From positions 506 to 64,505 of the forward strand of contig JAGAMD010000012.1 in assembly GCA_017624905.1 (NCBI GenBank): a stretch of 64,000 nt of DNA. Direction: 5' to 3'. The position numbers and the translations under genes were made by a program. How positions within the stretch are numbered: position 1 is the first letter of the stretch; each line of letters starts with the position of its first letter. The notes beneath the pieces are model-generated. The model saw nothing but the letters and a program-made list of their open reading frames with translations. It made no database searches and had not been told where the DNA came from. This document shows positions 42,365 to 63,871 of this stretch, in pieces. The DNA comes from Clostridia bacterium (lineage in GTDB: Bacteria; Bacillota; Clostridia; Oscillospirales; CAG-272).

Positions 42365-42527
42365 AATTTTATCTCTTTTCAAAGCAAAAAATACATATTA
42401 ATTGTATCATAATTTATCTCGTTTTTCAAGGAAAACGCTTATCGAGGTGCCCAAAACCGCCCAAAACCACACATTTTTTACTTGGATTTAATATCGAGTT
42501 CACATTTTGTACATATTTTCACAAATA

Positions 42528-42566
42528 AAAACAGACACAAAAGACATAGCCCTGTGTCTGTTTTTG
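42528..42566 (-). terminator. Rho-independent terminator
   Basis: ACAGACAC / GTGTCTGT stem with flanking A/T runs. Confidence 0.7.
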
Positions 42567-42568
42567 AC

Positions 42569-44665
42569 TTAATCAACAATTGTAATTTCGCTTGGAGCAG
42601 TGATTTTTGCACCATTTTTATTAATATCAACAAGTATTATGCCGTATGGAGTGGGTATCTCAATTTTGGCAAAATCAAGGTCTAGCAGCTGAGGCTTTAG
42701 TTTGATTTTTTTATAGCCCGGCTCTAAAATTTCAAGACCGCATAAAGCCATCGGTAGTGAATAGAGCGGAGTGCCGCCCCACGCGTGGGAATGGTCAAAT
42801 TTATATGTTGGCTCAGGTAGATAAAAGCCTTCTACAAGCCCCTTAGGACATTCCTTTATTGACTTTTTCCATAGCTCAAGTAAAGGCAAGGTGTATTTCT
42901 TAGACAAGCCGTTTCTATAAATTGCATCTAACCAAAAATGCATAAAGTAAGGCTGTACCTCACCAAGAGAGCTATCGTTATATATCGTTTCAAGCAATTC
43001 TTGACATTTACTTTTATCAAAAATTCCAAAGTAACAGCCGAGAATATTTGTATGACGGCGATAGTATCTTTTTTCCACATTTTGAGGAAGATATTGCCAA
43101 AGCATATTGTCGGGAGTTTTTGTATTAAGCCCCTCAAAGAAAAGTCCCTTTTCTTTATCATAAAGATAGGTTAAAATACTCTTTTTAAGAGCATTAGCCT
43201 TTATTCCTTGCACTTTTGCCATCTCGCTAAAGCCAAGAATGGTATAAATTTTTTCAGCTGAATTTAAAGCTCCAAAATAGAACATATTAAGACAGCCTTG
43301 ACCAAGTGCCTTTGGTGGATGGTGAGTTGAAATGTTGTCGGGGAAAAGCCAGTCCACAAACATATAGTCAGGTGGGGTTTCAATCAAGCCGTTTTCTCCT
43401 ATATAGCCATCAAACCTTTTTAGGAGCAAATCAAGTGCTGCCTTGCAGGCTTCAAGCAAGGACTTGTCCCCCGTTATCATATAATACTCATATATCATAT
43501 TAACCCAAATTAGGCTATATGTGGTGTGGAAAAGTCTGCCGTCGGCATCGACCATTGTACGAGCAATACGCTCCAAATCGAAGCGACAAAGACGAAAATC
43601 CCCATAAGAAAACTGAGTCATAAGCATCTCAATATAGTAGTCTCCCACACAAGCAAGAGGCTCTGAGTGCTTAGGGCTGTCAAGATGGTGTAGCTGACGG
43701 CAATACTTTAAGGTGTGTCGGCATACAGCCATTAAGTCGTTTAATTCTCCATCGCTAACCGTTGATTTAGCACACGTATCAATAGGGAAGAAGGAGCTAT
43801 CAAAAATAACCTCTATTTCAGCATTTCCCTCACCCTCATTTGCAATTTCAATATCATAGCCACCGAGGGAATTAAGCTCAAGACCATAATATGTGTCTTG
43901 TCCCTCTATAATGCCTCCAAAGGCATAAGTGCGTTCATCAGCTTCAAATGAGTATATGCTGATTTTTGCCTTGCCGTACACCTTAGCTCTAAGTGTAAGA
44001 TAACAAGCGTGAATTTTGTCATATTCAATAGTCTTTTTTAGTGATTTGCCACCTTCAACTAAAAATGTGTGCGAGGACAAGCGTTCAAGCGTACAGGGAG
44101 GAATAGGAGCACACTGAGGCTTCCAAATGTCCTCTTTAATTTCTGCCCTTAAACGTGGCTCTTTTTTCACTGTATTGTCAAAAAAGCGTGGAGATGTGTA
44201 TGATTTTAATAGCTCAATATCCCAGCTATCATCACTTTTTATCTCGGTAATCTTACCATTTTCAAGATAAGCCCTGCCCGAAAGGTAAAAGCCACCTTGC
44301 CCACGAGAATAGTCTGATAGATGATAAGGCATCATTCTTACAATGCTCTCAATCTCCACCTCGCTTGTATTAGGCACATATTTAAGGGAAAGGGAATAGT
44401 AGTCGCTCCTTGGCTTATCGTTGTTTAAAAAGTCGCCGCCTGAGTATGCAGGACCACGAGCAATAATTTCACCATTTATTTTAATTAGACAAGCTGTGTC
44501 AGCGCTAAAGGTGATTTCAAGACAAGATACCATACTATCAAAGCTATATTTTTTGCTAACTCTACAAACGGTATAATTGCCATTTGGCTTGTTTTCACCT
44601 AAGGGATTATAAAAAGTCCCTTGATTTTTTGGATATAGCTCATTTGGTAGCCAAATAAAGCTCAT
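42569..44665 (-). CDS. Divergent GH78-related (alpha-L-rhamnosidase-like) six-hairpin glycosidase
   Basis: 698 aa with the same overall architecture as the GH78 enzyme at 8744-10876. The catalytic-region signature is altered: HHLDSPKHSEPLACVGDYY instead of DCPQRDERMGWTGD. Confidence 0.5.
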   Translation of the reverse strand: MSFIWLPNELYPKNQGTFYNPLGENKPNGNYTVCRVSKKYSFDSMVSCLEITFSADTACLIKINGEIIARGPAYSGGDFLNNDKPRSDYYSLSLKYVPNTSEVEIESIVRMMPYHLSDYSRGQGGFYLSGRAYLENGKITEIKSDDSWDIELLKSYTSPRFFDNTVKKEPRLRAEIKEDIWKPQCAPIPPCTLERLSSHTFLVEGGKSLKKTIEYDKIHACYLTLRAKVYGKAKISIYSFEADERTYAFGGIIEGQDTYYGLELNSLGGYDIEIANEGEGNAEIEVIFDSSFFPIDTCAKSTVSDGELNDLMAVCRHTLKYCRQLHHLDSPKHSEPLACVGDYYIEMLMTQFSYGDFRLCRFDLERIARTMVDADGRLFHTTYSLIWVNMIYEYYMITGDKSLLEACKAALDLLLKRFDGYIGENGLIETPPDYMFVDWLFPDNISTHHPPKALGQGCLNMFYFGALNSAEKIYTILGFSEMAKVQGIKANALKKSILTYLYDKEKGLFFEGLNTKTPDNMLWQYLPQNVEKRYYRRHTNILGCYFGIFDKSKCQELLETIYNDSSLGEVQPYFMHFWLDAIYRNGLSKKYTLPLLELWKKSIKECPKGLVEGFYLPEPTYKFDHSHAWGGTPLYSLPMALCGLEILEPGYKKIKLKPQLLDLDFAKIEIPTPYGIILVDINKNGAKITAPSEITIVD

Positions 44666-45801
44666 TATTCTGTCTCCTTTTCAGTGTTATATCGCTCATT
44701 TGCAATGCTTATTAGCTCTTTTTCGGATTCTATATCGCTTGGGTTAGGATATGTTTTTGAAACCTTTTCAAAGGTAGATAAAAGCTTTTCTGCTTTTTCC
44801 TTGTCGTTTTCATAAAATAGAGCATATGCATATTGCATACGAATAACAGAAATATAGCTTTTCATCGAGGAAATAAAGCCCTCTTGCTCCCTTGTTAACA
44901 AGCTGTCAACAAATTCTTTTCTGTTTTCACCTATAAGCTCACAATAAATACGGTCGCAGATTAAAAGACCTCTATGTAAATTAACAATTCCGCTATCAAT
45001 AGATGTTAGATGTGCCATTAGCCTTTCAGCCTCGTCCAGCTTTATTTCATCTAACAATCGGTTGGCTCTCAATACACCCAAAACAGCTATCATACTGTTT
45101 TTCATTGCTTCATCGCTTGGCAACTCAAACCACTCATCTGGCATATCCTTTAGACGTACACCACAAGCCCCTTGCTCCCCTACCTTTAGCTGAATCCAAA
45201 AGGCACGACGAGCCTCATCGTTTTTAGATAAGGAAAACGCATTGTAGCCATCGTTGTCAACTATTTTTGTACGCATAGGAATGCCGTTTGTAAGAGCAGT
45301 AGAAATGCCTATTATTACAAATAATAATAGACCAAGAGATAAATAAGGAACATTTATAAATACAAATATTAAAGCAACAGCAATAGCCGATGTAATAAGG
45401 TTAAAGATTACGCCACCCATATTGTACCAAAAGGTAGGACATTTTCCATCCTTCATTTCCGGTGGAGCTAAAAGGCATTGACCAAGAGTCCCGGCTAAAG
45501 AAAATCTTTTAAGCTTAATCTTTCCATCTTGCTTTATAAGCATAAAGCTAAGAATACGGAAGGAACGGAATTTATATCCACTTAGTAAGCCAAAAACTAA
45601 ATGTCCACCCTCGTGAATTATAATATGTAAAACATATGACACAACACAAGAGACAATAAGAGTAACCATCGATAAAGCAAGAGAGGAGTCTCTTTCAAAG
45701 GTAAATATAGAGTGCACAAGGCATAGTACAAATGTAATAGCAAGAGATAAAATCTTTACAAGAAGAGAAATAAATCTCCATTTAAATGAAAGCTTTTTCA
45801 T
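44665..45801 (-). CDS. Membrane zinc-metalloprotease-like protein (HExxH, M50/site-2-protease-like) with a helical-repeat C-terminus
   Basis: HEGGHLVFG sits inside a TM segment, with several TM helices. The C-terminal ~180 aa are helical (TPR-like). 1-nt overlap with the downstream gene. Confidence 0.6.
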   Translation of the reverse strand: MKKLSFKWRFISLLVKILSLAITFVLCLVHSIFTFERDSSLALSMVTLIVSCVVSYVLHIIIHEGGHLVFGLLSGYKFRSFRILSFMLIKQDGKIKLKRFSLAGTLGQCLLAPPEMKDGKCPTFWYNMGGVIFNLITSAIAVALIFVFINVPYLSLGLLLFVIIGISTALTNGIPMRTKIVDNDGYNAFSLSKNDEARRAFWIQLKVGEQGACGVRLKDMPDEWFELPSDEAMKNSMIAVLGVLRANRLLDEIKLDEAERLMAHLTSIDSGIVNLHRGLLICDRIYCELIGENRKEFVDSLLTREQEGFISSMKSYISVIRMQYAYALFYENDKEKAEKLLSTFEKVSKTYPNPSDIESEKELISIANERYNTEKETE

Positions 45802-45844
45802 AGTAATCCTCCAAGCAGTCTTTTTATAAGTATATCATAAAAAA

Positions 45845-45876
45845 TAAAAAGCCACAAGATAGTTGTGGCTTTATTT
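45845..45876. terminator. Rho-independent terminator
   Basis: GCCACAA gatag TTGTGGC between A- and T-runs. Confidence 0.8.
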
Positions 45877-46458
45877 TTACTTATTTTGCTTTTTTAATTT
45901 GCTTTGATAAATTCTATATAGAGTGTAGCTTGTGTATCTTAAAATAAATACAGGTAGCATACTGAGTATAAAATTAAATATGAAAACAGGCAACCAAATA
46001 CCGGGGCTTTGACAAACAGGAATTAGTAGAACTAAAAAGCCTGTTAGTGCATTAACCAAATGGATAACCGTGCCATAGTTGATTTCAATTAAAAACTGCT
46101 TTAAATATTCTATATCGTTTGTGTCTCCAAGCTTGCTTTTGGACAGACCAGTAAACATACCAAGCTCAGGCACCTTGTCCTTCCACGATTTGATTTTTAT
46201 AAATTTGTAAAATTTAACCTCTTTTTTAGATACAATAAATAGCTTTTTTCCCGGCATATACCAGCTCTCGGGATTGAGTCTGCGTATAACAAGAGCTTCA
46301 ATTCCGTCAATAGCGATAATAGCGACTGTGCCAATGACTAAATATAAAAGTGTCCAAAGCATCTCTTGTGGCTCTGAAAAAATAGGCGACATAAAAAAGC
46401 CGTGAAATAAAGTAACAGATACTATTGCTACAACGATTGTAATTAGATAAAATAGCAT
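45877..46458 (-). CDS. Small polytopic membrane protein, possibly of the CrtO-like (glycosyl-4,4'-diaponeurosporenoate acyltransferase) family
   Basis: 193 aa. SWKDKVPELG ... IEINYGTVIH ... RYTSY resembles my recollection of S. aureus CrtO (KWKHKILDG ... ETKRAELIHW ... QRYNRPR). Weak. Confidence 0.35.
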   Translation of the reverse strand: MLFYLITIVVAIVSVTLFHGFFMSPIFSEPQEMLWTLLYLVIGTVAIIAIDGIEALVIRRLNPESWYMPGKKLFIVSKKEVKFYKFIKIKSWKDKVPELGMFTGLSKSKLGDTNDIEYLKQFLIEINYGTVIHLVNALTGFLVLLIPVCQSPGIWLPVFIFNFILSMLPVFILRYTSYTLYRIYQSKLKKQNK

Positions 46459-46589
46459 AAAATCATCTCCTTAACGAGTGTATTCTATCACAAATTTAAT
46501 CTTTTTGCAAGGTGCTAATCATAAGTATTGAAAAATATACAAGGATATGGTATATTAAATATATACTATATATTTAACGAGGTATAAAT

Positions 46590-48329
46590 ATGGATTTTAA
46601 AATTGCAGGTAGCGACTTTATAGTAAACGGCGAAAAGACAAAGATTATTTCAGGCGCTGTTCACTATTTTAGAAATATGCGTGGCACATGGCGTGATATT
46701 TTCAAGAAAATGAAGGCAATGGGACTAAACTGTGTAGAAACCTATTGTGCTTGGAATATGCACGAAAAAAAGATTGGCGAGTTTGATTTTACAGGCAATC
46801 TTGATATAAGAGAATTTATTAAAACAGCCGAGCAAGAGGGACTAATGGTTATTGTCCGTCCGGGCCCATATATTTGCGCCGAGTGGGAGTTTGGTGGCTT
46901 ACCTTGGTGGCTACAAACTATGGATGATATGGAAATAAGATGCTCAAATACTGTATATATGGAGCATTTTGAGAGCTACTTAAAGGCTATGTTTGACCAA
47001 ATCAGAGATTTGCTGTTTACAAACGGTGGACCAATAATTATGCTACAATGTGAAAACGAGTATGGCTACTATGGAGACGATAAGGAATACCTAAAGAGCC
47101 TATATAACATTTACAGAAAGCACGGTATAGACGTTCCGCTATTCACCTCAGACGGTACAAGCGAGGCAAACCTACTTGATGGCACAATTGACGGTTGTCT
47201 TGCAACACTAAACTTTGGTTCAAGAGTTAGCGAAAACTTTAAAGCACACGATAAGCTATTCCCAGACTCACCAAAAATGTGTATGGAAATGTGGAATGGT
47301 TGGTTTGATGCGTGGGGAGATTCCTTCCACCATAAAACAAGCGCCGAGGACTACGCCCGTGTAGTTGACGATATGTTAACAAAGGGCAGTCTTAATATGT
47401 ATATGTTCATAGGTGGCACAAACTTCGGCTTTACAAGTGGAGCTAACCACTATGAAAAGTTTACACCGGATGTAACCAGCTACGACTATGATGCTATGCT
47501 TACCGAGTGTGGAGATGTAACAGAAAAATACCTAAAGGTAAGAGATGTAATTAAAAAGCATGTAAATTACGAATTACCGGAAATACCACAAAACAGAGAA
47601 AAGAGAGCATACGGCAAGGTAGAGCTTACACAAAAGGGAGGCTTCTTTAACAACCTTGAAAATCTATCAAGCCCTGTTTTCTCAAATGTTCCAAAATGTA
47701 TGGAGTATTATGGTCAAGGCTATGGCTATATAGCATACAAAACCAAGCTAAACCGTGATTACATAAACACACCAATCGTATTTACTGACCTTGGCGACCG
47801 TGCGCATATCTATATAAACGATAAATTAAACGGTATAGTTTATGTAAATGATGATGAATTAAAAGCAACCATCAACGCAAAGTCCGGCGACACTCTAACC
47901 ATACTTGTTGAAAATATGGGAAGAGCAAACTTTGGACCAAAAATGATGCGCAAAAAGGGCATAGCGGGAAGAGTGCTCCTTGGCGATAGAATAATTCACT
48001 TCAATTGGGATGTATATAAGCTACCAATGGACAATCTTGACAAGGTAGAGTATGAGGGAGGCTTTGAGGAGCCAAGCTGCTTCCTAAAGGGCACATTTAA
48101 TGTTGACAAGGTAGCAGATACCTTTATTTATCTTGATAATTTCAAAAAAGGCTTTGTAGTAATAAACGGCTTTAATATCGGTAGATATTGGGAGATAGGC
48201 CCACAAAAGAGCCTATATGTTCCTGCCTCAATTTTAAAAGAGGGCGAGAACGAAATTGTAGTCTTTGAGTCCGACGGACTAAAGGGCGAGAGCGTAGTTG
48301 AATTTAAAAACTACCCAACACTAGAATAA
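46590..48329 (+). CDS. Beta-galactosidase, glycoside hydrolase family 35
   Basis: GLNCVETYCAWNMHE, CENEYG (acid/base Glu), MEMWNGWFD; 579 aa. Confidence 0.85.
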   Translation: MDFKIAGSDFIVNGEKTKIISGAVHYFRNMRGTWRDIFKKMKAMGLNCVETYCAWNMHEKKIGEFDFTGNLDIREFIKTAEQEGLMVIVRPGPYICAEWEFGGLPWWLQTMDDMEIRCSNTVYMEHFESYLKAMFDQIRDLLFTNGGPIIMLQCENEYGYYGDDKEYLKSLYNIYRKHGIDVPLFTSDGTSEANLLDGTIDGCLATLNFGSRVSENFKAHDKLFPDSPKMCMEMWNGWFDAWGDSFHHKTSAEDYARVVDDMLTKGSLNMYMFIGGTNFGFTSGANHYEKFTPDVTSYDYDAMLTECGDVTEKYLKVRDVIKKHVNYELPEIPQNREKRAYGKVELTQKGGFFNNLENLSSPVFSNVPKCMEYYGQGYGYIAYKTKLNRDYINTPIVFTDLGDRAHIYINDKLNGIVYVNDDELKATINAKSGDTLTILVENMGRANFGPKMMRKKGIAGRVLLGDRIIHFNWDVYKLPMDNLDKVEYEGGFEEPSCFLKGTFNVDKVADTFIYLDNFKKGFVVINGFNIGRYWEIGPQKSLYVPASILKEGENEIVVFESDGLKGESVVEFKNYPTLE

Positions 48330-48330
48330 A

Positions 48331-48360
48331 AAAAGACCTGACAACCGTCAGGTCTTTTTG
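48331..48360. terminator. Bidirectional rho-independent terminator
   Basis: GACCTGAC aacc GTCAGGTC with flanking A/T runs. Confidence 0.85.
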
Positions 48361-48362
48361 TT

Positions 48363-49655
48363 TTATTCAGCTAAAGAAGAAAGCTTTTTTAAATCATTAA
48401 TCAAGTCGGCTTTTTCTTCATCGTGATTATATTCATTCCACTTTTCAATAACATCACGCATATCAGCTAGAAAAACATATATTTTTTCATAAGGCTTGTT
48501 GCTTTTTACATCTCGCCATTCTCCAGTTGCAAATAGCTCTGAATATAGTAGCTTTTTGTTTCCAGCAGGCTTTTTATCGTATTGCTTTTCTTTGTTGTAT
48601 GGAATGATAAAGCAGTTATAAATTGTGTTTTTGCCGTTTGTTTTCTTAAACAGATGGTCGCCATATGTGAGTTGCTTTTGAATGGAATCGGTAGTAGGCA
48701 ATCCAGCTATATCATCATTTTTATACCCCTCGTCTGCGTAACGATAGCATTTTGCATCTATGATAACATAAATGTCGCTTTCATCATCGCTCTTTTGACG
48801 AAGAATAGAGTCAGGGAAAAGAGGAGATGCATTCTTTCCACAGCTCCATTTTCCAGTAGGCATATATGGATCTAAATCATTTTCTGTTCCATAAATTTGG
48901 TCTATCATTCGTTCAAAAACATAGTGATAGCTATCAACACCATATACAAGCTCACCATTTATCGAGTTGTTTAATCCGCTAACTACATCAAGCATATTCT
49001 TCAATCTTAATTGCTTTTCATCATCGAATGTTTTGTCAATTTCTAAATTAAGAGCATAAATATATTGCTTTTTCTTTGCATTTGAAAGCTCAATGTCCTT
49101 TAAATTCTTAACACCGATAGATGCAGATCGAACACCAAAAAGCCAGCCTATTAAAAATATACTTTTCTTAACGCAATGCTGATGAATTTCCACAAGTAAA
49201 TTGTCAACTGAGCTTTTGGAAGAAACAACGAAGTCCTTGTAAACAAATGAGCCATTTGAATAAAGCGCTTGCTTGCTAAGTGTTCTTTTCCAGTTTATTT
49301 TCCCGTTTTGATTTTGCTTATATACGGTTTCTCGATTTTTATAATAACCATTTTTCAAGAAATCTCTAATAATCCAAATATAGGATTTAATAGCAAAAAA
49401 GTCATCACCATCACAAGAATCGTTAAGCTTTGTTTTCTCTTTAGATTTTGTTTTTGCAAATTCTATGCTTGATAAAACAGCTCTAATGCTATTAGAAATA
49501 TTTTCATCTATATCAGAAACGGCAATATCGTTGATATCTTTATTCCAACGAAAGGTTTCTGGATAATAAAAATCAACTGCGTTTTCAGAAAATTTGATGC
49601 CTACGAAGGATTTTCCTCCTTGAGATGCATGAAATTTTAAAATTCTATCAGTCAT
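48363..49655 (-). CDS. McrC / LlaJI-R2-like PD-(D/E)xK restriction endonuclease subunit
   Basis: 430 aa. Nuclease core FPDS...IYVIIDAKCYRY...SIQKQLTYGDH (PD...D-x-K...QxxxY). Located 9 nt downstream of the McrB-like gene. Confidence 0.75.
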   Translation of the reverse strand: MTDRILKFHASQGGKSFVGIKFSENAVDFYYPETFRWNKDINDIAVSDIDENISNSIRAVLSSIEFAKTKSKEKTKLNDSCDGDDFFAIKSYIWIIRDFLKNGYYKNRETVYKQNQNGKINWKRTLSKQALYSNGSFVYKDFVVSSKSSVDNLLVEIHQHCVKKSIFLIGWLFGVRSASIGVKNLKDIELSNAKKKQYIYALNLEIDKTFDDEKQLRLKNMLDVVSGLNNSINGELVYGVDSYHYVFERMIDQIYGTENDLDPYMPTGKWSCGKNASPLFPDSILRQKSDDESDIYVIIDAKCYRYADEGYKNDDIAGLPTTDSIQKQLTYGDHLFKKTNGKNTIYNCFIIPYNKEKQYDKKPAGNKKLLYSELFATGEWRDVKSNKPYEKIYVFLADMRDVIEKWNEYNHDEEKADLINDLKKLSSLAE

Positions 49656-49664
49656 ATTCTAATC

Positions 49665-51734
49665 TCACTCATCAAAAGAAATTTTAGAATTAAAAATTTC
49701 AGCGCCCTTGTCAGCCTTCCAACCTTCAATTAGCTTGTCAAGAGTATTATAATCCTTTGTGTTGAACCATTTTTCACGGTCAAACTTTGCAACATCATTC
49801 CAAAGATATTCAAGAATTTTATATGCAAACTCTTCAATTTTGGCTTCACTTGCGGTTTCACCAGCATCAAGGAGCATATCGCTATCTATAAAGTATTTGC
49901 CAATTTGCTTATCCTCAGAGTCGAAGGTGCCATCCTTAATCATATAGCTGTTGATTTTTTCAACAAAGGTTTTCCAAGTAACATTTGTAAGACCAGGGAT
50001 ATATTTATCGCCGATAGTATCGTCCTTTGTAAATGTATTAGAAAGCTTTTTGAATTTCCAACGACGCTTGAACGCTGTATCTAGAGTATATACATTTTGG
50101 TCGCTTGTGTTCATTGTAGCATAGATGAATAGGTTTGAAGGAATTTTAATATATGAATAGTTATATGTGTAGTTAATTCCATATCTGTGGATTTTTTTAT
50201 TGAGCTTTTTGCTTGATGAATCTCTTAAGTAATCTAAAATTTGCAAATTAGTAAGCTCATATTCACTAATTCCATCCTTGCGATCTAAGAGCTGGAACAA
50301 ATCTCCAAAAATACTTGCTGCGTTTCCTCTGTTTAGCTCCTCAATAACTAGAGCAACCTTTTTATCGCTATTAATAATTGCACATTCAAGGGCTAGTGTA
50401 AAAGGACCTGGAACAAATTGATATGTAACCTTGTCTTCGTCGCCAACTACAGGAATAATTTGTCCAACAAAGTCTGTATTTGTGTAGTCTTGATGAAAGG
50501 TTATTCTAATAACATGTTCATCTTCAACATCATTTAACAAATTGGTCTTGATGTGATGAGATTTTCCACATCCAGGCGTTCCATAAATAACACGGTTTTC
50601 GCCACCCTTATAAGATACATCGTCGTAGCTATATGGTTTAGCGCTTTCTTCGGAGTCTTTATCAAAAGATTCATCCAAATCTGTATCAATTCTCTCAAGC
50701 TCGCTACTCTCATAATCATCATCTAGGTCTGAATCCTTGCTTCCACTCATAGATGCACCTACATGTCCAATAAAAGTTGCTGGCTTACCACTTTTGTAAT
50801 CGATAAACAAATCAATATATTTGTTTGATTTTCCTACCTTTGCTTTTGCATCGCTTAAGGTTTTATCATTGTCATATTGTTGGTCGATGTCATTTGGATA
50901 TTTGTAGCCACAAATTTCTTCAATCCTTCTAATTCTGTATTCAACATTACTTGCCTTATTGTCAGACATGCCAGCTTTTTTACAGTAATTTCTAAAGTCT
51001 GGTCGTCTCATAGGAGTACAGAATAAATCATAAAAGCCAAAAAGAGAATATTTACCACTATTTGATTTTAAATAAGAGTGCATTTTTCCCTTTTCGGAGG
51101 ATTTGCACTGTCCCTTATATCTATCAAATAAAATGTAGTTTTCTTTTCTAAAACTGTCGATTATGTCAGCCTTGCTCATGAATTTAGTGTTTTCATAAAG
51201 GTGGTAGTAGCCATTTGCATCCTTGTAAATTTGTATATTTATTGAGGATGGATCAGCACTAGCAAGACTAGATATAACTTCAACCTTACGGAAGTTAGAT
51301 GGATTTTTAATGTAACTGTTAAAGCTAGCTATATCCTTTGTAGCATTATCAAAGCTGTTTTGGTCTAGTATATTTAATTCAAAAAAGCTTTGTGAAGCTG
51401 GATTATTAATTAAATTTAATGTTGTTTTGTCTAACATAAAAAGGTCGGCAGAGCAAAACTGTGAAATATATAGTGCGTTACAAAACAGTTCTTTTCCTGT
51501 TGCATCAGTCCATTTAGGTGAGCATTTTGCTACAACATCAGTTCCTCGCATCTCGAATTTGTCAAAAACCCAAAGCCTTTTTAACGCTGCAGGACTAAAT
51601 TCGTTTTCGTATCTTACAAATAATAAATCTCCCTTAGATAGATTTCCAGGATAATAGTCTTTTTCTAGCGCTATAAATTCAAGGCTATCAACCTGTGCCT
51701 TCACATTCATTTTTACATAAAAAACATTGCTCAT
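49665..51734 (-). CDS. McrB / LlaJI-R1-like AAA+ GTPase subunit with an uncharacterised ~330-aa N-terminal domain and an acidic linker
   Basis: Walker A GTPGCGKSH, McrB-type motifs VIEELNRGNAASIFGDLFQLLDR and IYATMNTSDQNVYTLDTAFKRRW. Linker DSDLDDDYESSELERIDTDLDESFDKDSEE. Confidence 0.8.
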   Translation of the reverse strand: MSNVFYVKMNVKAQVDSLEFIALEKDYYPGNLSKGDLLFVRYENEFSPAALKRLWVFDKFEMRGTDVVAKCSPKWTDATGKELFCNALYISQFCSADLFMLDKTTLNLINNPASQSFFELNILDQNSFDNATKDIASFNSYIKNPSNFRKVEVISSLASADPSSINIQIYKDANGYYHLYENTKFMSKADIIDSFRKENYILFDRYKGQCKSSEKGKMHSYLKSNSGKYSLFGFYDLFCTPMRRPDFRNYCKKAGMSDNKASNVEYRIRRIEEICGYKYPNDIDQQYDNDKTLSDAKAKVGKSNKYIDLFIDYKSGKPATFIGHVGASMSGSKDSDLDDDYESSELERIDTDLDESFDKDSEESAKPYSYDDVSYKGGENRVIYGTPGCGKSHHIKTNLLNDVEDEHVIRITFHQDYTNTDFVGQIIPVVGDEDKVTYQFVPGPFTLALECAIINSDKKVALVIEELNRGNAASIFGDLFQLLDRKDGISEYELTNLQILDYLRDSSSKKLNKKIHRYGINYTYNYSYIKIPSNLFIYATMNTSDQNVYTLDTAFKRRWKFKKLSNTFTKDDTIGDKYIPGLTNVTWKTFVEKINSYMIKDGTFDSEDKQIGKYFIDSDMLLDAGETASEAKIEEFAYKILEYLWNDVAKFDREKWFNTKDYNTLDKLIEGWKADKGAEIFNSKISFDE

Positions 51735-51777
51735 TTCCGTTCTCCTTTATAAATGTCTTTGACGATATGATAAAATA

Positions 51778-51806
51778 ATTATATCATAAAGTAATATTTA
51801 AGTCAA
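51778..51806 (-). promoter_or_regulatory. Consensus sigma-A promoter of the McrBC-like operon
   Basis: Minus strand: TTGACT (51806-51801), 17 nt, TATAAT (51783-51778). Confidence 0.7.
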
Positions 51807-51830
51807 CTAAAACACTTTTTAGTCGACTAA
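51798..51830. promoter_or_regulatory. Two related palindromic sites (operator-like) over and upstream of the -35 box
   Basis: Perfect 12-bp palindrome TTAGTCGACTAA (51819-51830) and related TTAGTTGACTTAA (minus strand of 51798-51810). Centres are about 20 bp apart. Confidence 0.4.
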
Positions 51831-51856
51831 GCCTATTATATCGCATCTTGTGTACT

Positions 51857-51885
51857 AAAAAAGACACCCAAAAGGGTGCCTTTTT
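51857..51885 (-). terminator. Rho-independent terminator after the esterase gene
   Basis: CACCC aaaa GGGTG stem with flanking A/T runs. Confidence 0.65.
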
Positions 51886-52837
51886 ATTTTCTTTCTCTAT
51901 ATGAAAGAATAATGTGCTCACCAAATAGATGACCTAGCTTTAATTCACTCATTGAATCGTAGTGGGCAATGTCAGGCTCACCCTCCGGCTCAGCCTCGGT
52001 TGTTAATCCTGCATCAACAGTTGAGAAGTATAGGTTGAGAGGGGAGCTGTTTGCAAATCGCTCCTTGGCTGAGTTTATAACCTCATATCTTTTCCAGAGG
52101 GGAATGTCCTCAATACCGGCATCTATAAAGTATATACCGCCATTTTCCTCATATGCTTTTAAGTCCTCTCTTATACAAGAAACAAAGAAGGATTGATTAT
52201 CATAATACTCGTCAGCTACCTTGCCACTTGCATCACTCTCTCCCTGCATCCAACAAACGGCACCGATTTTTGCATCATAGTTGTGCGATATAAGTGCATC
52301 CATATATGTCTTTGTAAAGAGCATAAACGCTTCATAAATTGAGCCACGCTCATCTCCGTAAAGCCACTGAGTTTTTAAACAGCTACCGGAATATGTGTAT
52401 TTTAAAATAACAATTTTTTCATCAGGATATTCCTTTGATAGCTTTTCAGCAATTCCAAGCTCCGGACCAAAGTATTCATCAGTTACACCACAGCCAAGCT
52501 TAGTAGTAACGAACTCGCCCCCCGAGGTGTTTCTTTTGTTGTCCTCAAGATGGTTTATTAAAACATTAGAAAAGCCGTCTTTGTATATTTTATATTGCTC
52601 ACTGTCTATATTCTTTTCCAAATAACTGTTTAACGCACAGCCGGTTGCATTGCTTTGCCCAAGCACCAAAACAACCTTAACCCTCTGTCCGCCACCGTCT
52701 TCAAGGGTAGTTGGCTGATTAAAGGTATTGTCAAGCTCAAGCCAAGTACGCCCCTTGTTTTTATCACCACAACTAGCAAGTAAAACAACAGAGAACAGAA
52801 AACAAACGGCTAAAATTAAAGATATAAATTTACGCAT
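51884..52837 (-). CDS. SASA-family (sialate O-acetylesterase-like, DUF303) carbohydrate esterase lipoprotein
   Basis: Signal peptide with lipobox LLASC. LGQSNATG and WMQGESD motifs characteristic of the SASA/SGNH-like esterase family. Confidence 0.7.
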   Translation of the reverse strand: MRKFISLILAVCFLFSVVLLASCGDKNKGRTWLELDNTFNQPTTLEDGGGQRVKVVLVLGQSNATGCALNSYLEKNIDSEQYKIYKDGFSNVLINHLEDNKRNTSGGEFVTTKLGCGVTDEYFGPELGIAEKLSKEYPDEKIVILKYTYSGSCLKTQWLYGDERGSIYEAFMLFTKTYMDALISHNYDAKIGAVCWMQGESDASGKVADEYYDNQSFFVSCIREDLKAYEENGGIYFIDAGIEDIPLWKRYEVINSAKERFANSSPLNLYFSTVDAGLTTEAEPEGEPDIAHYDSMSELKLGHLFGEHIILSYRERK

Positions 52838-52846
52838 TTTTCTCTC

Positions 52847-55432
52847 CTATTTTGAATATTTGCAAAGCGAAATATCACCTACAATTCCGGAAGGTGGGAT
52901 TTGCATAAAGAATGATAAATCATCACGTCGCTTATGTGCAAGATTGCTCTTAACTACAATCTCAAGCTCGTTTTCCCCATCTCTTAACGCATGCTTTAAG
53001 CTAAACTTGTACGGGGCATTGATTCTTGCACCAAGATATTTGCCATTTAGCCAAGCTTCACATATCTCTCCAACCTGACCTAAATCTATTACATCAAAGC
53101 CGTCATTTATATTTAGACTTGCTTTGTAGCGGATGCTGCCGGAAAAGTGAGGCATACACTTTGGTGCTGAAATATCAAAAATCTTTGAGTCCCTTGCAAT
53201 CAAGCGATAGTCCTTTTCGCCCTCCTCCATAACCTCAATGTCAAAGTGCAGGTCAAGAGGGATTCTTTCTATCTCGCTCGTAAAATATGGTATGTCATTT
53301 GGAATTTCATCACCGAAAATAACAAAAATCATATTTCCACGCTCAAGGTGTAATTTAAGCTCACCATTTTTACACTCGTAGCGATATAGCTTGTTTTCCC
53401 AAGGCTCGTAAATTAGACACTCACCGTCTTCTTCAAGGAAAACGGAAGAATCAACATTGTTTATAGTGTCCTCGTTAGAGAATAGATAAATATTACGCTT
53501 GTCTCTTTGTATATGGTAAAAACGCAAGGTGTCAGAGTTTCCTTGTACATGGCAAAGCTTTCTTTGTCGTAGCTCGTTTACAAGCTCGTTACCCTTAATA
53601 GCTTCAAATGTATCGGGAATAGTATAACACCTCTCAAGCTCTACTGCAGAAGAAGGAAGCGAGTCAATAAAGATAACAGGCAAACCGCTTTTTGATAGTC
53701 TTTCAAAGCACAAAAGCACATCAAGAGGCAAAGCGTCGCTTTCGGAGATAATCAAAGCACCATAGCTTTCACCATTTATATGTAGTCTATTGTCCTTGAT
53801 ATCGGCACTCTTTAAATAGTCAAGTGGCACAATATCAAAATCAACAAGACCGCGTGTTAGCTTTTTGCATATATCAAAGAACAAGTGTCCGTTTTTAGAG
53901 GTCCATTCGCCCTCTGCATTGTAAAACACAGCTACATCAGCCTTATGTGTGCCATCACTTATCATATGAGAGCATCGTCCCATATACTCCATTAGATTTT
54001 TAAATAGTGGATATTGAATATTCTTGCCACCGTTATAAAAATGTGGTGGGCAATCTGTGTCCTCTTCCTTTGGCGAAAATGCGTGTGGCACAAAATAATT
54101 AACGCCACTAGACAGCATAACGTCGGCAAGTCCCTTCATAAAGGGTAGCCCCTCAGCCCAACCAAATGCACCAAAAAGCTCACACATAGCTCGTCCTTTT
54201 TTAAGAGGCTGAATGTGTGCGTGAGATGAGGCAAGCTTAGGCAGAGTATAACGGAAAAACGCAGGGTCAGCAATACCGCCATCAGCTAAAGGCGAACGAT
54301 GAATGACATCAGCCATACCGGGAATGTCCTGCATAAGCACAATATCAATTCCCGCCATATCCTGTCCGTCAAGTGCACGGAAATAATGACCTGAGCCATA
54401 GCCAAGTCGCATATGAGCACCCATATCCTCGATAACGTGTCCTATATACATAACTCCGTGATCACGGCACCAGTTGCCAAGCAAATAGCTAAAGTTTTCA
54501 CTATATAGCTTAGTTACTATGTTCATATAGTGAGTTCTTATTAGAGTTGACATATCTCCAAGGTCTTCAAAGAGGGCAGGAATATAAAGCTCAATTTTGT
54601 TTTTATCAATTCCTGACTCCTTAGCTATTAAATCGGTTAAATCGTCTCGCCAAGGAAACGGAGAATGCATATCGCCAAGACGATTAAAATATGTATAGCA
54701 AACATTTAAAAAGCCCGGCTCGTCAGAGAAAAATCCCTTAAAGGTGTTTCCAAAATACTCCTTAAAATGCTCATAATGTGGCTCGTAAATTGCATCAATC
54801 ATTGCGTGGCACGAGTCTTTATTCAGCATATCGATATAGTAAAACAGACGGTCGTTTTCATAGTCAAATGGCTTGGTTTTAATAGTTATACATACTCGCC
54901 AAACACCCGTCGGCACATCCCAATAAACCATACCATCATCAAGAGAAGAGGTTAGGTCAACAGCACTTTTGTAGTCAAGCTCCTCGCCGTTTCCTATATG
55001 CTTATATGCAATAACCTTGAGTATTTCTTCCTCACTGTTAATTCTGCCACTGACATAGAGCTTTGTCCCCTTCATAGGACCGAGCACCTCTATTTGTAGC
55101 TCTCTTATAAGAGACTTTCTTAAATGAGCTCTTTCAGGCGCTTCAAGATAGCCGTTTGCATAACCGGTAGGAAATTTTTTATCATCAAGAAGCCAAACAG
55201 ACATATTTAGCTCCTTAGCTGTTTTCAGTATAAAGCCGAAATCGTCCCACCACTCATCACGGCAAAAGCCCTCATATGGTCTGCTCTCAGCACAAAATTC
55301 GCTAATGCCACTGTTTTTTATTGCAATTATCTCCTCACGCACTCTTTCCTTTGGCTCACCGTGTAGCCACAAAAAGGGGAGAATATAGCTCCCTTGCTTA
55401 CCTAGTAAGCAATCCTTGATTCTTTCGTCCAT
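52847..55432 (-). CDS. Large glycoside hydrolase, GH106-like (glycosylhydrolase-like jelly-roll family; candidate alpha-L-rhamnosidase)
   Basis: 861 aa. N-terminal PFLWLHGE...WLLDDKKFPTGYANG and C-terminal sugar-binding jelly-roll pattern AWLNGKYLGARINAPYKFSL..DGENELEIVV. The family assignment is from memory of Pfam PF17132-type proteins. Confidence 0.5.
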   Translation of the reverse strand: MDERIKDCLLGKQGSYILPFLWLHGEPKERVREEIIAIKNSGISEFCAESRPYEGFCRDEWWDDFGFILKTAKELNMSVWLLDDKKFPTGYANGYLEAPERAHLRKSLIRELQIEVLGPMKGTKLYVSGRINSEEEILKVIAYKHIGNGEELDYKSAVDLTSSLDDGMVYWDVPTGVWRVCITIKTKPFDYENDRLFYYIDMLNKDSCHAMIDAIYEPHYEHFKEYFGNTFKGFFSDEPGFLNVCYTYFNRLGDMHSPFPWRDDLTDLIAKESGIDKNKIELYIPALFEDLGDMSTLIRTHYMNIVTKLYSENFSYLLGNWCRDHGVMYIGHVIEDMGAHMRLGYGSGHYFRALDGQDMAGIDIVLMQDIPGMADVIHRSPLADGGIADPAFFRYTLPKLASSHAHIQPLKKGRAMCELFGAFGWAEGLPFMKGLADVMLSSGVNYFVPHAFSPKEEDTDCPPHFYNGGKNIQYPLFKNLMEYMGRCSHMISDGTHKADVAVFYNAEGEWTSKNGHLFFDICKKLTRGLVDFDIVPLDYLKSADIKDNRLHINGESYGALIISESDALPLDVLLCFERLSKSGLPVIFIDSLPSSAVELERCYTIPDTFEAIKGNELVNELRQRKLCHVQGNSDTLRFYHIQRDKRNIYLFSNEDTINNVDSSVFLEEDGECLIYEPWENKLYRYECKNGELKLHLERGNMIFVIFGDEIPNDIPYFTSEIERIPLDLHFDIEVMEEGEKDYRLIARDSKIFDISAPKCMPHFSGSIRYKASLNINDGFDVIDLGQVGEICEAWLNGKYLGARINAPYKFSLKHALRDGENELEIVVKSNLAHKRRDDLSFFMQIPPSGIVGDISLCKYSK

Positions 55433-55583
55433 TGCTTAAGCCTCCATACTCGGTATAATATTACTATATCATATTTAACTAAAATTCACAATAAGTAAAG
55501 TAGAAAAACTCAGCCTTTTACCAAGGAAAAATAAAAATTTTCATTTATGTGTACCAAAAAAGTCACACTACCTAAAAACCTAG

Positions 55584-55612
55584 TTGACTTTTCGCTTTTA
55601 GTTCGCTATAAT
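55584..55612 (+). promoter_or_regulatory. Consensus sigma-A promoter driving the retron ncRNA/RT transcript
   Basis: TTGACT (55584-55589), exactly 17 nt, TATAAT (55607-55612). Confidence 0.75.
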
Positions 55613-55619
55613 GAGCTCA

Positions 55620-55822
55620 CAAAGCTTATGAAAGGAATAATCATAGGGCAATAGTGTATTCCATTTAGGAGTCGATAGCGAGTCGCTATTGATACAATTC
55701 AATTTTACATATTTCGCAAATGCTCAAGCAAAAACACTCCATGTAGTAAATCCGCCCACCATATGGGCTGTCCTACATATCGCATTCTTGCCATACAAAT
55801 GTATTGTCCTATGATTGTTATT
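55620..55822 (+). ncRNA. Retron msr/msd non-coding RNA (a1 55636-55653, candidate branching G 55654, msr hairpin 55672-55692, msd imperfect hairpin 55716-55791, a2 55802-55819)
   Basis: AATAATCATAGGGCAATA pairs antiparallel with TATTGTCCTATGATTGTT (18 bp including two G:U). The msr stem is TCGATAGC/GCTATTGA. The msd stems are ATGTAG/CTACAT, GCCCA/TGGGC and GCAAATGC/GCAT(tc)TTGC. It sits between the promoter and the RT start, as in Ec86-type retrons. Confidence 0.65.
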
Positions 55823-55825
55823 TAT

Positions 55826-56749
55826 ATGATAGTTTATACTGAGCTTAAGTCAATAGAAAAGGATTTAGGTATTCCACTAAAAACATTGTTTTCGGTTAGC
55901 AATAATCTGTCGAGCCACTACAAAAAGGTAAAAATTGCTAAAAAGAATGGTGGAACAAGAGAGCTACGCGTACCGGACTATATTTTAAAGAAAATTCAAA
56001 GAGCGATTTGTGATACCTTTCTTGTATATGAGCCTATTTCTAAATACGCACAAGCATATCGCTTTGGCTCAAGCGTTCAAAAAAATGCTTCGTATCATAT
56101 AAACATGAAAAAGATACTCAAGCTCGATATAAAGCACTTTTTTGATAGTATTCTTTATACCACAGTAAAGGACAAGTGCTTCCCAAGTGATAGATTTTCA
56201 GAGCCTATAAGAATACTTTTAAGTGTGCTTTGCTATTATGGTGATGCGTTGCCACAGGGTGCACCATCCTCGCCAGTAATAACCAATATTATTATGAAGG
56301 ATTTTGATATAGAGGTTGGTAGCTTTTGCGAAAAGAGAAATATATCATACACAAGATACTGCGACGATATGACCTTTTCAGGAGATTTTGACGAAAAAGA
56401 GATAATTTCATTTGTCAAGGAAAAGCTGTTTAGCTGTGGTTATTTAATCAACAACAAAAAGACAACTGTTGTGAAAGAGGGCAAATGTCAATTAGTTACA
56501 GGAATAGTAGTAAATAAAAGACTATCAACCCCATCTGAGTATAAGGCAAAAATAAGGCAAGAAATCTATTTTGGCACAAAATACGGCTTTGAAAACCACT
56601 TAAATCATACAGGCAACCAAACTGAGCTAAAAAGCTACATAGAATCGCTGCTTGGCAGAGTATCATTTGCATTACAAACCGAGCCCGACAATAATGAGTT
56701 TAAAAAATACAAGGCTCAGCTTATAAAGTATAAAAAGAGCATATCATAA
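55826..56749 (+). CDS. Retron-type reverse transcriptase
   Basis: NASYH (NAxxH), LKLDIKHFFDSI, LPQGAPSSPVITN, YTRYCDDMTFS (YxDD), QLVTGIVVN (VTG), C-terminal LLGRVSFAL. It is colinear with my recollection of Ec86 RT. I prefer ATG 55826 (alternative 55811), because the track start 55763 lies inside the msd hairpin. Confidence 0.85.
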   Translation: MIVYTELKSIEKDLGIPLKTLFSVSNNLSSHYKKVKIAKKNGGTRELRVPDYILKKIQRAICDTFLVYEPISKYAQAYRFGSSVQKNASYHINMKKILKLDIKHFFDSILYTTVKDKCFPSDRFSEPIRILLSVLCYYGDALPQGAPSSPVITNIIMKDFDIEVGSFCEKRNISYTRYCDDMTFSGDFDEKEIISFVKEKLFSCGYLINNKKTTVVKEGKCQLVTGIVVNKRLSTPSEYKAKIRQEIYFGTKYGFENHLNHTGNQTELKSYIESLLGRVSFALQTEPDNNEFKKYKAQLIKYKKSIS

Positions 56750-56750
56750 A

Positions 56751-56776
56751 AGCACACTGATAGTGTGCTTTTTTTA
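56751..56776 (+). terminator. Rho-independent terminator immediately after the RT gene
   Basis: AGCACACT gat AGTGTGCT followed by TTTTTTT. Confidence 0.85.
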
Positions 56777-56892
56777 TTGTTGCAATATTATATAATTTAT
56801 GTTAAAATAGAAAAAGAGTTAGACTAAAGCAAGGTGAAGGTATAAGCTATCACTCGCTTTTTATTATATCATCAAGCTTTTTGGGGGAGTAT

Positions 56893-58407
56893 ATGAAGAA
56901 AAAATACATTCTGGCACTTGACGAGGGGACAACTAGTGCTCGTGCCATTTTGTTTGACAAGCAAGCCAACATAGTTTCTCAGGCACAACACGAAATTCCT
57001 ATGATTTATCCAAAATCTGGTTGGGTTGAGCAAAATCCAATGGACATTTATGCAAGCCAATACGCAGCATTAACAGAGTGTATTGCCAAAAGTGGTATAT
57101 CTCCTGAGCAAATTGTCGGCGTTGGTATTACCAACCAAAGAGAAACAGTTGTCGTTTGGGATAAAACCACAGGTATGCCTATTTGCAACGCAATTGTGTG
57201 GCAGTGTCGACGCACCGCCGATATTTGCAAGGAGCTAATAGATGGCGGATATTCCGACTATATACGCAATATTACAGGACTTAGAATAGATCCATATTTT
57301 AGCGGTACTAAAATAAAATGGATACTTGATAATGTTGAGGGAGCAAGAGAAAAGGCAAAAGCAGGTGAGCTTATGGCAGGCACAGTTGATACTTGGCTTG
57401 TTTGGAAGCTTACCGATGGGCGAGTTTTTGTTACCGACAGAACAAACGCATCAAGAACAATGCTTTGCAATATACACAAGTGTGAATGGGATCAAAAATT
57501 GCTCGATATACTTGATATTCCAAGAGAGATGCTACCTGAAATTAAGAGTAGCAGTGAGCTTTTTGGTACATTTGAATGTATGGGTGCTGACCTCGATATT
57601 ACAGGTATTGCGGGAGACCAGCAATCAGCACTGTTTGGTCAAGCCTGCTTTAGCGAGGGCGAGGCAAAGAACACATATGGTACAGGATGCTTCCTACTTG
57701 CCCATACAGGTAAAAACGCAATTGAAAGTAAGCACGGCTTACTTACAACAATAGTAGCCGATGAAAAGGATAGACCTATTGAGTATGCACTAGAGGGAAG
57801 CGTATTTGTGGGTGGTGCTGTCATTCGTTGGCTAAGAGATGAATTAAAGCTAATTCACGAGTCCTTAGATAGTGAGTATTTTGCTTGTAAAATAAAGGAC
57901 AGTGGCGGTGTATATTTTGTTCCGGCATTTAGTGGGCTTGGTGCGCCTGTTTGGGATATGCACGCAAGAGGCACAATTTTTGGACTTACCGCAGGTACGG
58001 GCAAGGACCATATTATTCGTGCCGCACTTGAGTCAATAGCTTATCAAACCGAGGATGTAATAGAGGCTATGGATGCCGATATTGAGCTGTTTTATGGCAA
58101 TAATAAACACGCAATATCGCTATTGAGAGTTGACGGTGGTGCATCAGCAAACGATTTGCTTATGCAAATGCAAAGCGACTATTCAAGAATTTCCGTACAA
58201 AGGTCAACAACTGCCGAGGCAACAGCCTTAGGTGCTGCCTTTCTTGCCGGACTCGCTGTTGGATTTTTCAAAAATAGAGAAGAAATCAAGTCGCTTGTAT
58301 CAGCAGGTAAAGCCTTTGCACCAAAAATGAGCGAAGAGGAATCACAAAAGAGCATAAATGGATGGCACAGAGCCTTAGAGGCTTGCAGAAAATTCAGCGA
58401 GGAATAA
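56893..58407 (+). CDS. glpK: Glycerol kinase
   Basis: [30 protein letters not shown], FGTxGxxL-type FGGY kinase motifs. GGGGGAG RBS before ATG 56893. Confidence 0.92.
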
Positions 58408-59334: not shown

Positions 59335-59337
59335 GTA

Positions 59338-59364
59338 AAAGCACACCGAAAAGGTGTGCTTTTG
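59338..59364. terminator. Bidirectional rho-independent terminator
   Basis: GCACACC gaaaa GGTGTGC with flanking A/T runs. Confidence 0.85.
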
Positions 59365-63673: not shown

Positions 63674-63871
63674 ATGACAGAGGAGCTATTTACGGTCTTA
63701 CAAGCTGCTGAATATTTGCAAGTTTGTGAAAAAACTGTTCGTAGACTTATTAATTCTAAAACACTTGCCGCATCAAAGGTGGGTAAAAGTTGGAGAATAA
63801 AGAAATCTGATATAGATAATTATTTATCCGCGACATCAAATTTATCGAAAGGAGCAATCGTCAATGAGTGA
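63674..63871 (+). CDS. Excisionase/MerR-type helix-turn-helix DNA-binding protein
   Basis: LFTVLQAAEYLQVCEKTVRRLINSKTLAASKVGKSWRIKKSDIDNYL, the classic excisionase-family HTH; GGAGGA RBS. Confidence 0.75.
   Translation: MTEELFTVLQAAEYLQVCEKTVRRLINSKTLAASKVGKSWRIKKSDIDNYLSATSNLSKGAIVNE

Follow-up and report, generated by a model that had tools for sequence, protein, structure and literature searches.

Within a 64,000-nucleotide stretch of DNA from a gut Clostridia bacterium (hereafter the window; contig JAGAMD010000012.1 of assembly GCA_017624905.1), two adjacent genes encode an McrB-type GTPase and a PD-(D/E)xK nuclease. We consider it probable that this pair is a type IV, modification-dependent McrBC-type system, built on the R1/R2 chassis of the LlaJI system and deriving its specificity from a PUA-like (YTH/EVE-like) reader at the N terminus of the GTPase subunit; this is also the most economical reading of the locus. 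Type IV restriction enzymes have been shaped by an arms race over phage DNA modifications and are useful reagents for mapping epigenetic bases, and each new reader family on the McrB motor is a candidate new specificity. The conceptual gain is modest, since the design that joins a PUA-like reader to an McrB GTPase and a PD-(D/E)xK nuclease is already well known (PMC7641849); what is new here is a further reader family on the McrB motor, together with two extra modules.

An McrB-type motor and a LlaJI R2-type nuclease

Both open reading frames (ORFs) had been placed correctly by a first-pass annotation of the sequence. They lie on the reverse strand, with a gap of 9 nucleotides (nt) between them, and encode proteins of 689 and 430 amino acids (aa):

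49665..51734, reverse strand: McrB/LlaJI-R1-type AAA+ GTPase subunit, 689 aa
49665..50600, reverse strand: residues 379-689 of this subunit, McrB-type AAA+ GTPase motor
50601..50744, reverse strand: residues 331-378, acidic linker, probably disordered
48363..49655, reverse strand: LlaJI-R2-type (McrC-like) PD-(D/E)xK nuclease subunit, 430 aa
48750..48815, reverse strand: catalytic motif of the nuclease, P281-D282 ... I-I-D300-A-K302

The first-pass annotation had confined the canonical McrB AAA+ motifs to the larger protein's C-terminal half, and all McrB-type matches indeed begin at residue 370 or later. Pfam AAA_5 covers residues 382-558, the NCBIfam McrB model gives a partial match over residues 380-486, and the McrB structures of Thermococcus gammatolerans (TgMcrB) and Escherichia coli (EcMcrB) in the PDB match residues 379-564. 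The PADLOC/REBASE-derived REase_II model (PDLC03547) aligns its positions 255-558 of 585 with residues 370-679. Residue-level alignments to TgMcrB (6ut3) and EcMcrB (6hz4) locate Walker A (GTPGCGKSH, 385-393), Walker B (IEELNRGN, 464-471) and the NxxD signature (NTSD, 542-545, within MNTSD, 541-545), followed by KRRW at 556-559. The acidic linker that had been proposed to join the N-terminal region to this motor is also present: residues 331-378 contain 37.5% D+E and carry a net charge of -13, and the predicted local distance difference test score (pLDDT) falls below 50 for residues 324-340.

The 430-aa protein belongs to the RE_LlaJI family (PF09563, 7e-31; PADLOC PDLC03549, 4e-37; phrog_16589, restriction endonuclease), and a search of the PDB by sequence returned no match to it, McrC included. 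Its residues P281-D282...D300-A-K302 are invariant across five partner nucleases of the family described below (alignment A5). The locus thus holds both the R1 (McrB-like) and the R2 (PF09563) subunit of a LlaJI-type system. It shares with LlaJI itself (Lactococcus lactis pNP40; R1.LlaJI, R2.LlaJI and M1/M2.LlaJI) a McrB-like GTPase whose N-terminal specificity half is unique, paired with a distinct RE_LlaJI PD-(D/E)xK subunit, the two being encoded by adjacent, co-oriented genes (PMC1459862). With E. coli K-12 McrBC it shares the two-gene type IV layout of a GTP-dependent AAA+ motor and a PD-(D/E)xK nuclease, including the conserved Walker A, Walker B and NxxD motifs.

A PUA-like barrel is predicted at the N terminus of the GTPase subunit

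By sequence, the resemblance to known systems ends at the linker. The residues K, S, D, N, F and Y abound in the stretch 1-330, which contains the two peptides that had been singled out at the outset (DLLFVRYENEF, residues 36-46, and LKRLWVFDKFEM, residues 51-62). In agreement with the earlier statement that no motif could be placed in this region, we found no family match at E<0.09 and no sequence match in Pfam (E<=10), NCBIfam, PHROGs or PADLOC; residues 1-378, and likewise a profile of the N-terminal region, had no sequence match in the PDB. What had been taken for a single domain of about 330 aa is indeed unassignable by sequence. In the structure that AlphaFold2 (AF2) predicts from the family alignment (residues 1-340; pLDDT 83.6, predicted template modelling score, pTM, 0.74) it resolves instead into three parts: residues 1 to about 148 form a beta-barrel with helices, residues 149-245 an alpha/beta subdomain and residues 246-315 a helical module modelled with less confidence. 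On the sequence we delimit these parts as follows:

51291..51734, reverse strand: residues 1-148, PUA-like (YTH/EVE/ASCH-like) beta-barrel, predicted base-reading module (AF2 pLDDT 94, pTM 0.88; Foldseek)
51000..51290, reverse strand: residues 149-245, conserved subdomain of alpha/beta type bearing the motifs NYRK, D[VI]QxYK and WDLFC (alignment A1; AF2 pLDDT mostly >90)
50745..50999, reverse strand: residues 246-330, helical module (DFxxYCxxxG...Y..GiR.iE), in a subset of the family (pLDDT 39-85)

A Foldseek search with the whole 1-340 model weakly ranked EVE, ASCH and YTH structures first. When the 1-148 model was compared with the PDB, the 11 best neighbors were all YTH, EVE or ASCH structures, with TM scores of 0.42-0.55 for full-length domains. 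The best of them is 2P5D (MJECL36; E 1.4e-3, TM 0.54/0.55), and the neighbors include THYN1 with 5-methylcytosine (5mC) DNA (5j3e), the YTH domains of YTHDF3 and CPSF30 with N6-methyladenosine (m6A) RNA (6zot and 5zuu), and further 2AR1, 1ZCE, 3IUW (ASCH-type activating signal cointegrator), 2GBS and ZmASCH. In the BFVD viral library, the N-terminal model matched ASCH/DUF3850 phage proteins. The predicted model of residues 1-148 thus has the PUA-like barrel of five or six strands with flanking helices, so that the search for an EVE, ASCH, PUA or YTH fold, which the first-pass annotation had suggested, was positive at the level of the fold. Within the barrel, the conserved aromatic residues W55, F71, F85, F93, F99 and F117 are, judged from the alignment, candidates for lining an aromatic cage or pocket that would hold a flipped modified base. 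No fold or sequence match could be attributed to the subdomain 149-245.

The competing assignments that had been named for this region, the DNA-binding domains of LlaJI-R1 and EcoKMcrB, were found neither by sequence nor by fold. No B3-domain structure appeared among the 50 best Foldseek matches of either model (1-340 and 1-148) or in the PDB sequence search, and DUF3578 gave no fold match with either model and no sequence match. The protein differs from these counterparts in the part predicted to set specificity. LlaJI carries an unrelated N-terminal domain, and the PADLOC LlaJI-type model covers residues 370-679 only; EcMcrB reads 5mC via DUF3578; and the Helicobacter pylori LlaJI.R1 protein belongs to the same motor clade (H. 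pylori loci rank within the 80 closest motors, at 40-41% identity across residues 371-682) but binds a specific DNA site via a B3 domain, as outlined in PMC7680126, which cites Hosford & Chappie 2018 for this.

The N-terminal unit is a rare module shared between two motor clades

We then asked how widely the N-terminal region is distributed. When 1.84 billion cluster representatives were searched exhaustively with HMMER, 31 proteins matched, 18 of them at E<=1e-10, and about 30 clusters share residues 1-245; the family is thus rare, and current profile libraries do not detect it. Word-indexed searches in a set of 5.8 billion proteins, one using residues 1-340 and one using residues 244-330 (the helical module), each returned a 96%-identical variant only. 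The family matches in which no Walker A motif could be located are mostly short fragments, and one of them, the 1112-aa repeat protein P0032, looks spurious, its match being restricted to query residues 258-336. In alignment A1, conservation extends over some 245 residues, a unit marked by the motifs GDYAFIRL, RLWK, NYRK, D[VI]QxYK and WDLFC, in which R149 is invariant and F185, F195 and F238 are at least 90% conserved. The helical module 246-330 is shared by the present protein with P0005, P0010, P0012 and P0015.

The unit (hereafter the N-domain) is N-terminal in all 20 family members with a locatable Walker A motif, and it is joined to two motor clades, one of the LlaJI-R1 type (GTPGCGKSH / EEINRGNA) and one of the classical McrB type (GPPGTGKTY / IDEINRGNISKIFGEL, McrB_lid). 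The partner genes differ as well. RE_LlaJI nucleases accompany the N-domain in six loci (L001, L006, L010, L012, L032 and L041), and McrC (PF10117) does so in L013, the sole classical-motor locus whose downstream gene had a Pfam entry. Since the N-domain has been swapped between two motor clades and two nuclease families, it behaves as expected of a specificity module, and this shuffling between two chassis marks it as an autonomous one. Together with the PUA-like fold, the swapping supports the role that the first-pass annotation had given to the N-terminal region. Among the motors themselves the N-domain is uncommon: across 185,579 species genomes, a search with the full-length alignment A4 found no fewer than 589 motors of the LlaJI type, and of the best 80 of these just two, from a Saccharofermentans MAG (metagenome-assembled genome) and a Clostridia MAG, carry it, both as two-gene modules.

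No methyltransferase is linked to the two-gene operon

The pair is a compact unit with its own promoter, close gene spacing and a terminator:

51778..51806, reverse strand: sigma-70-type promoter serving both genes, TTGACT, 17-nt spacer and TG-extended TATAAT (TGnTATAAT); 11/12 matches, best site of the region
51798..51830, no strand assigned: palindrome TTAGTCGACTAA with near-copy TTAGTTGACTTAA, the near-copy overlapping the -35 box of the operon promoter
48330..48359, bidirectional: intrinsic terminator with a 13-bp stem, ending both the operon and a convergent GH35 gene

As read from the sequence, an AAGGAGA ribosome-binding site precedes the ATG at 51734, and TTAGTCGACTAA is a perfect palindrome; with TTAGTTGACTTAA it forms a possible operator, and no regulator gene lies within the two-gene cassette. 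As had been claimed, the pair comes without a methyltransferase: Pfam scans of the neighbors found no DNA methyltransferase, either inside the operon or in the roughly 12 kb around it, and a tblastn search for C5 methyltransferases in window positions 40001-60000 found none.

To place this absence in context, we searched the flanks of related loci, up to 8 kb on each side, by tblastn with the MAG's own C5 methyltransferase, a single query that yields a lower bound. Of the 80 best LlaJI-type motor loci (L032-L111), 38 have a C5 methyltransferase within 8 kb, as a rule immediately upstream in the same orientation and in many cases in two copies, as in LlaJI itself, and 42 have no match by this test. 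None of the N-domain loci (the window, L001, L006, L010-L013, L032 and L041) has a match in flanks of up to 8 kb. The eight homologous loci thus agree with the present operon, and, the MAG being 75% complete, the absence seen is one of linked methyltransferases only. About half of the LlaJI-type motor loci are thus without a detectable C5 methyltransferase nearby. PADLOC/REBASE-style "type II" labels may be wrong there, and many LlaJI-like "type II" systems may actually be type IV.

Nevertheless, the chassis itself could point the other way. LlaJI restricts unmethylated GACGC/GCGTC and has two 5mC methyltransferases in its operon (PMC1459862), and the present pair could be a LlaJI-like, type II-style enzyme that cuts an unmodified specific site, with its methyltransferases elsewhere in the genome or in the unrecovered 25% of it. 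The assignment of motor and nuclease to the LlaJI R1/R2 families fits such an enzyme, as do the restriction of unmethylated DNA by LlaJI (PMC1459862), the methyltransferase linkage of about half of the related motors (38/80), the completeness of the MAG of just 74.7% and the presence of a C5 methyltransferase on its contig 37. We nonetheless regard this explanation as very unlikely. The two 5mC methyltransferases of a LlaJI-type operon are missing here and the N-domain loci lack a linked C5 methyltransferase; LlaJI-type methyltransferases lie directly upstream in the operon, where here terminator and promoter delimit a two-gene unit; the N-domain is PUA-like rather than B3-like as in the H. 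pylori protein; and an enzyme of this kind would be lethal if unprotected.

The contig-37 gene does not change this picture. The MAG has three genes of methyltransferase type, namely this C5 gene, an HsdM-type gene on contig 20 and a gene for a 1051-aa fused N6 enzyme that extends from window position 63864 onward. We rejected the C5 methyltransferase as the cognate modifier because it lies on another contig in an operon of its own with an HATPase_c_3 gene; as it is the only C5 methyltransferase of the MAG, cognate modifying enzymes, whose discovery elsewhere the first-pass annotation had held to count against a type IV system, were not found in the recovered part of the genome. Its operon (contig 37, 1-4439, reverse strand) is headed by the 380-aa C5 methyltransferase and continues with a 343-aa protein that belongs to no known family, the 484-aa HATPase_c_3 protein and a P-loop protein (GDVQSGKT) truncated where the contig ends; the operon resembles a distinct defence cluster of several genes linked to a methyltransferase.

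Weighing the type IV reading and its mechanism

Taken together, these results are best accommodated by a modification-dependent enzyme whose parts have precedents. N-termini of McrB proteins serve as specificity modules, as outlined in PMC7680126, the E. coli protein using DUF3578 for 5mC, that of T. gammatolerans YTH for N6-methyladenine (6mA) and H. pylori LlaJI a B3 domain for a DNA site. Among the EVE fusions of defence systems, EVE-McrB is the most frequent and forms an established class (PMC7641849), and in censuses of McrBC systems the fused specificity domains are highly varied (10.1101/2023.07.31.551357). The T. gammatolerans McrBC system (PMC7680126) is a close architectural parallel, having an N-terminal barrel of the YTH/EVE superfamily as the reader on an McrB GTPase, two genes and no methyltransferase; its motor motifs align with those of the 689-aa protein. 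Its reader, however, has no detectable sequence similarity to ours. The barrel of the present protein continues into some 180 aa of further modules and an acidic linker of 48 aa, where TgMcrB has a linker of 7 aa, and the present motor belongs to the LlaJI-R1 clade with RE_LlaJI, not canonical McrC, as the partner. The EVE-McrB fusions of Bell et al. (2020) likewise join a PUA-like modified-base reader to an McrB GTPase and are common in Firmicutes (PMC7641849).

In the mechanism that we propose, the N-terminal PUA-like barrel of the 689-aa subunit would recognize a modified base in incoming DNA, probably assisted by the subdomain 149-245 and, in this protein, by the helical module, and the flexible acidic linker would tether this reader to the McrB-type AAA+ GTPase. 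The GTPase presumably hexamerizes and recruits the LlaJI-R2/McrC-like PD-(D/E)xK subunit, and GTP hydrolysis would then drive DNA translocation and license cleavage. The target (DNA, not RNA), dependence on modification, the use of GTP, the assembly of a hexamer and the choice of modification are parts of the model that we infer. The earlier assignment to type IV draws support from the missing linked methyltransferase and the PUA-like fold.

Several points weigh against this reading. First, none of 23 members of the N-domain family is matched at E<=1 by the Pfam EVE (PF01878), YTH and ASCH models. An hhalign comparison with four clostridial EVE domains yields a probability of 14%, which is not significant, with the GD-strand and the following strands in equivalent register; the EVE hidden Markov model has no match in the whole MAG. 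The N-domain, which the Pfam EVE model does not detect, is for these reasons set apart from the EVE-McrB fusions as a sequence family of its own, not described before and comprising about 30 clusters. Second, the structural similarity is moderate, with a best E of 1.4e-3 and TM near 0.5. We therefore treat the PUA-like assignment of the predicted 1-148 structure as moderately well supported, and membership in any of these families at the sequence level as not supported. Third, PUA-like domains also bind RNA and free nucleotides. Even within the fold, modified-base reading does not follow from structure alone, since MJECL36 has a YTH-like fold with an aromatic cage and its m6A binding was not detectable (PMC6112328). 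Fourth, at least 3 kb of upstream sequence is available in just 5 N-domain loci, so that, with about five informative loci and a single-query lower bound, the contrast in methyltransferase absence is suggestive only. Finally, the host has a C5 and two N6-type methyltransferase genes, and a broad reader of 5mC or 6mA would be self-toxic unless restricted by sequence context. Since the host appears to make both 5mC and 6mA, the reader is presumably context-restricted or aimed at another modification.

It is tempting to go one step further. The unit of about 245 aa, that is, the barrel together with the NYRK/DVQxYK/WDLFC subdomain, might be an undescribed reader family for a modification or a context outside those of the DUF3578 (5mC and 5-hydroxymethylcytosine), YTH (6mA) and EVE readers, a suggestion that we make tentatively and with more doubt than confidence. 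One candidate target would be a hypermodified phage base of the gut virome, which would be compatible with the host's own 5mC and 6mA methyltransferases.

The same features of the fold leave room for a McrBC-type defence in which the N-terminal module senses RNA, a structural feature of DNA, a protein of the phage or a free (modified) nucleotide that acts as an alarm signal, with activation unlike that of a classical type IV enzyme. PUA-like domains (ASCH, YTH and PUA) are often RNA binders. The PUA-Cal-HAD system, as outlined in bioRxiv 10.64898/2026.01.15.699771, binds free m6-dAMP, and the CoCoNuTs are McrBC relatives predicted to target RNA (PMC11090510); the nearest structure is one without m6A binding (PMC6112328), and no function is assigned to the two additional modules, 149-245 and 246-330. 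However, the GTPase bears NTSD, the NxxD signature of DNA-targeting McrB proteins, and not the NxD that, along with extensive coiled coils, characterizes CoCoNuTs (definitions in 10.1101/2023.07.31.551357), on which ground we rejected membership in that group. The longest helix of the 1-340 model, a model that leaves out motor and nuclease and to which no coiled-coil test was applied, has at most 17 residues, and the partner belongs to an ordinary PD-(D/E)xK DNA nuclease family. We thus judge a sensor of this kind unlikely next to a type IV reader of modified DNA.

Genomic surroundings of the pair and of its homologs

The source MAG (1.5 Mb) belongs to a gut Clostridia lineage, and the gene pair, with a GC content of 0.34 against about 0.38 in its surroundings, is an accessory, sporadically distributed cassette: none of the 24 further species sampled from the genus has it, which marks it as accessory, and near-identical DNA of the locus occurs in a handful of gut metagenome runs only. 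A 96%-identical variant is found in other gut metagenomes with the same neighbors. Joined GH35/SASA flanks were searched for in 30 congeners, where the flanking genes are never adjacent (20-30 kb apart or on separate contigs); a clean insertion site is therefore not shown, the flanking genes not being syntenic in relatives.

The genes around the pair encode a GH35 beta-galactosidase, a SASA esterase, a GH106 enzyme, rhamnosidase-like proteins and a retron reverse transcriptase. The last of these (328 aa; ORF 55763-56749, forward strand, within 55584-56776; RVT_1 2.8e-18, phrog_2825 2e-58) lies about 4 kb from the pair. Farther along, the 1051-aa fused N6-methyltransferase gene (type IIG-like, PF02384 4.9e-38; contig positions 64369-67524, forward strand) is followed by a convergent gene for a 558-aa HD-domain protein (67647-69323, reverse strand). 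Retron, McrBC pair and N6-methyltransferase/HD genes form a loose scatter of defence genes amid glycan-utilization genes.

Such a setting, carbohydrate-utilization genes without a dense defence island, could also suit a decayed, inactive pair or one of McrB type that has been domesticated for a role outside defence, for which latter case S. aureus PcdA, a McrB-family protein co-opted for cell division (as outlined in PMC10602043), is a precedent. Yet the NTPase and nuclease motifs are all intact and invariant across the family, and the closely similar variants keep their context in other gut metagenomes. The sporadic distribution (0/24 congeners), the mobile or defence contexts of the homologs and the nearby retron and fused N6-methyltransferase gene (a putative restriction-modification enzyme) speak against such a role as well, so that we see very little probability in this alternative to an active type IV system.

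The homolog contexts comprise genes for serine recombinases, an integrase, AAA_13, TIR, Band_7, and Macro and ADP-ribosylglycohydrolase proteins. P0004, the closest distinct homolog (43% identity in the N-domain), is located on L006-L009 between a serine recombinase/SHOCT gene and genes for an AAA_13 ATPase, Band_7, TPR/DUF6273 and TIR_2 proteins, and on L006 a tyrosine integrase follows these neighbors; these surroundings indicate a mobile defence island. Macro-domain and ADP-ribosylglycohydrolase genes (L010, 11244-13855) stand directly after the McrB/LlaJI-R2 pair of P0005, and both families recur near P0004 in L006.

Another family member, P0017 (765 aa), has an insertion of about 150 aa within its classical McrB AAA+ domain (NVWKVSL...IRIGYD...GDIVL...AIGVIEGD). 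By eye this insertion resembles a second PUA/EVE-like module, so that two readers may be combined in one protein.

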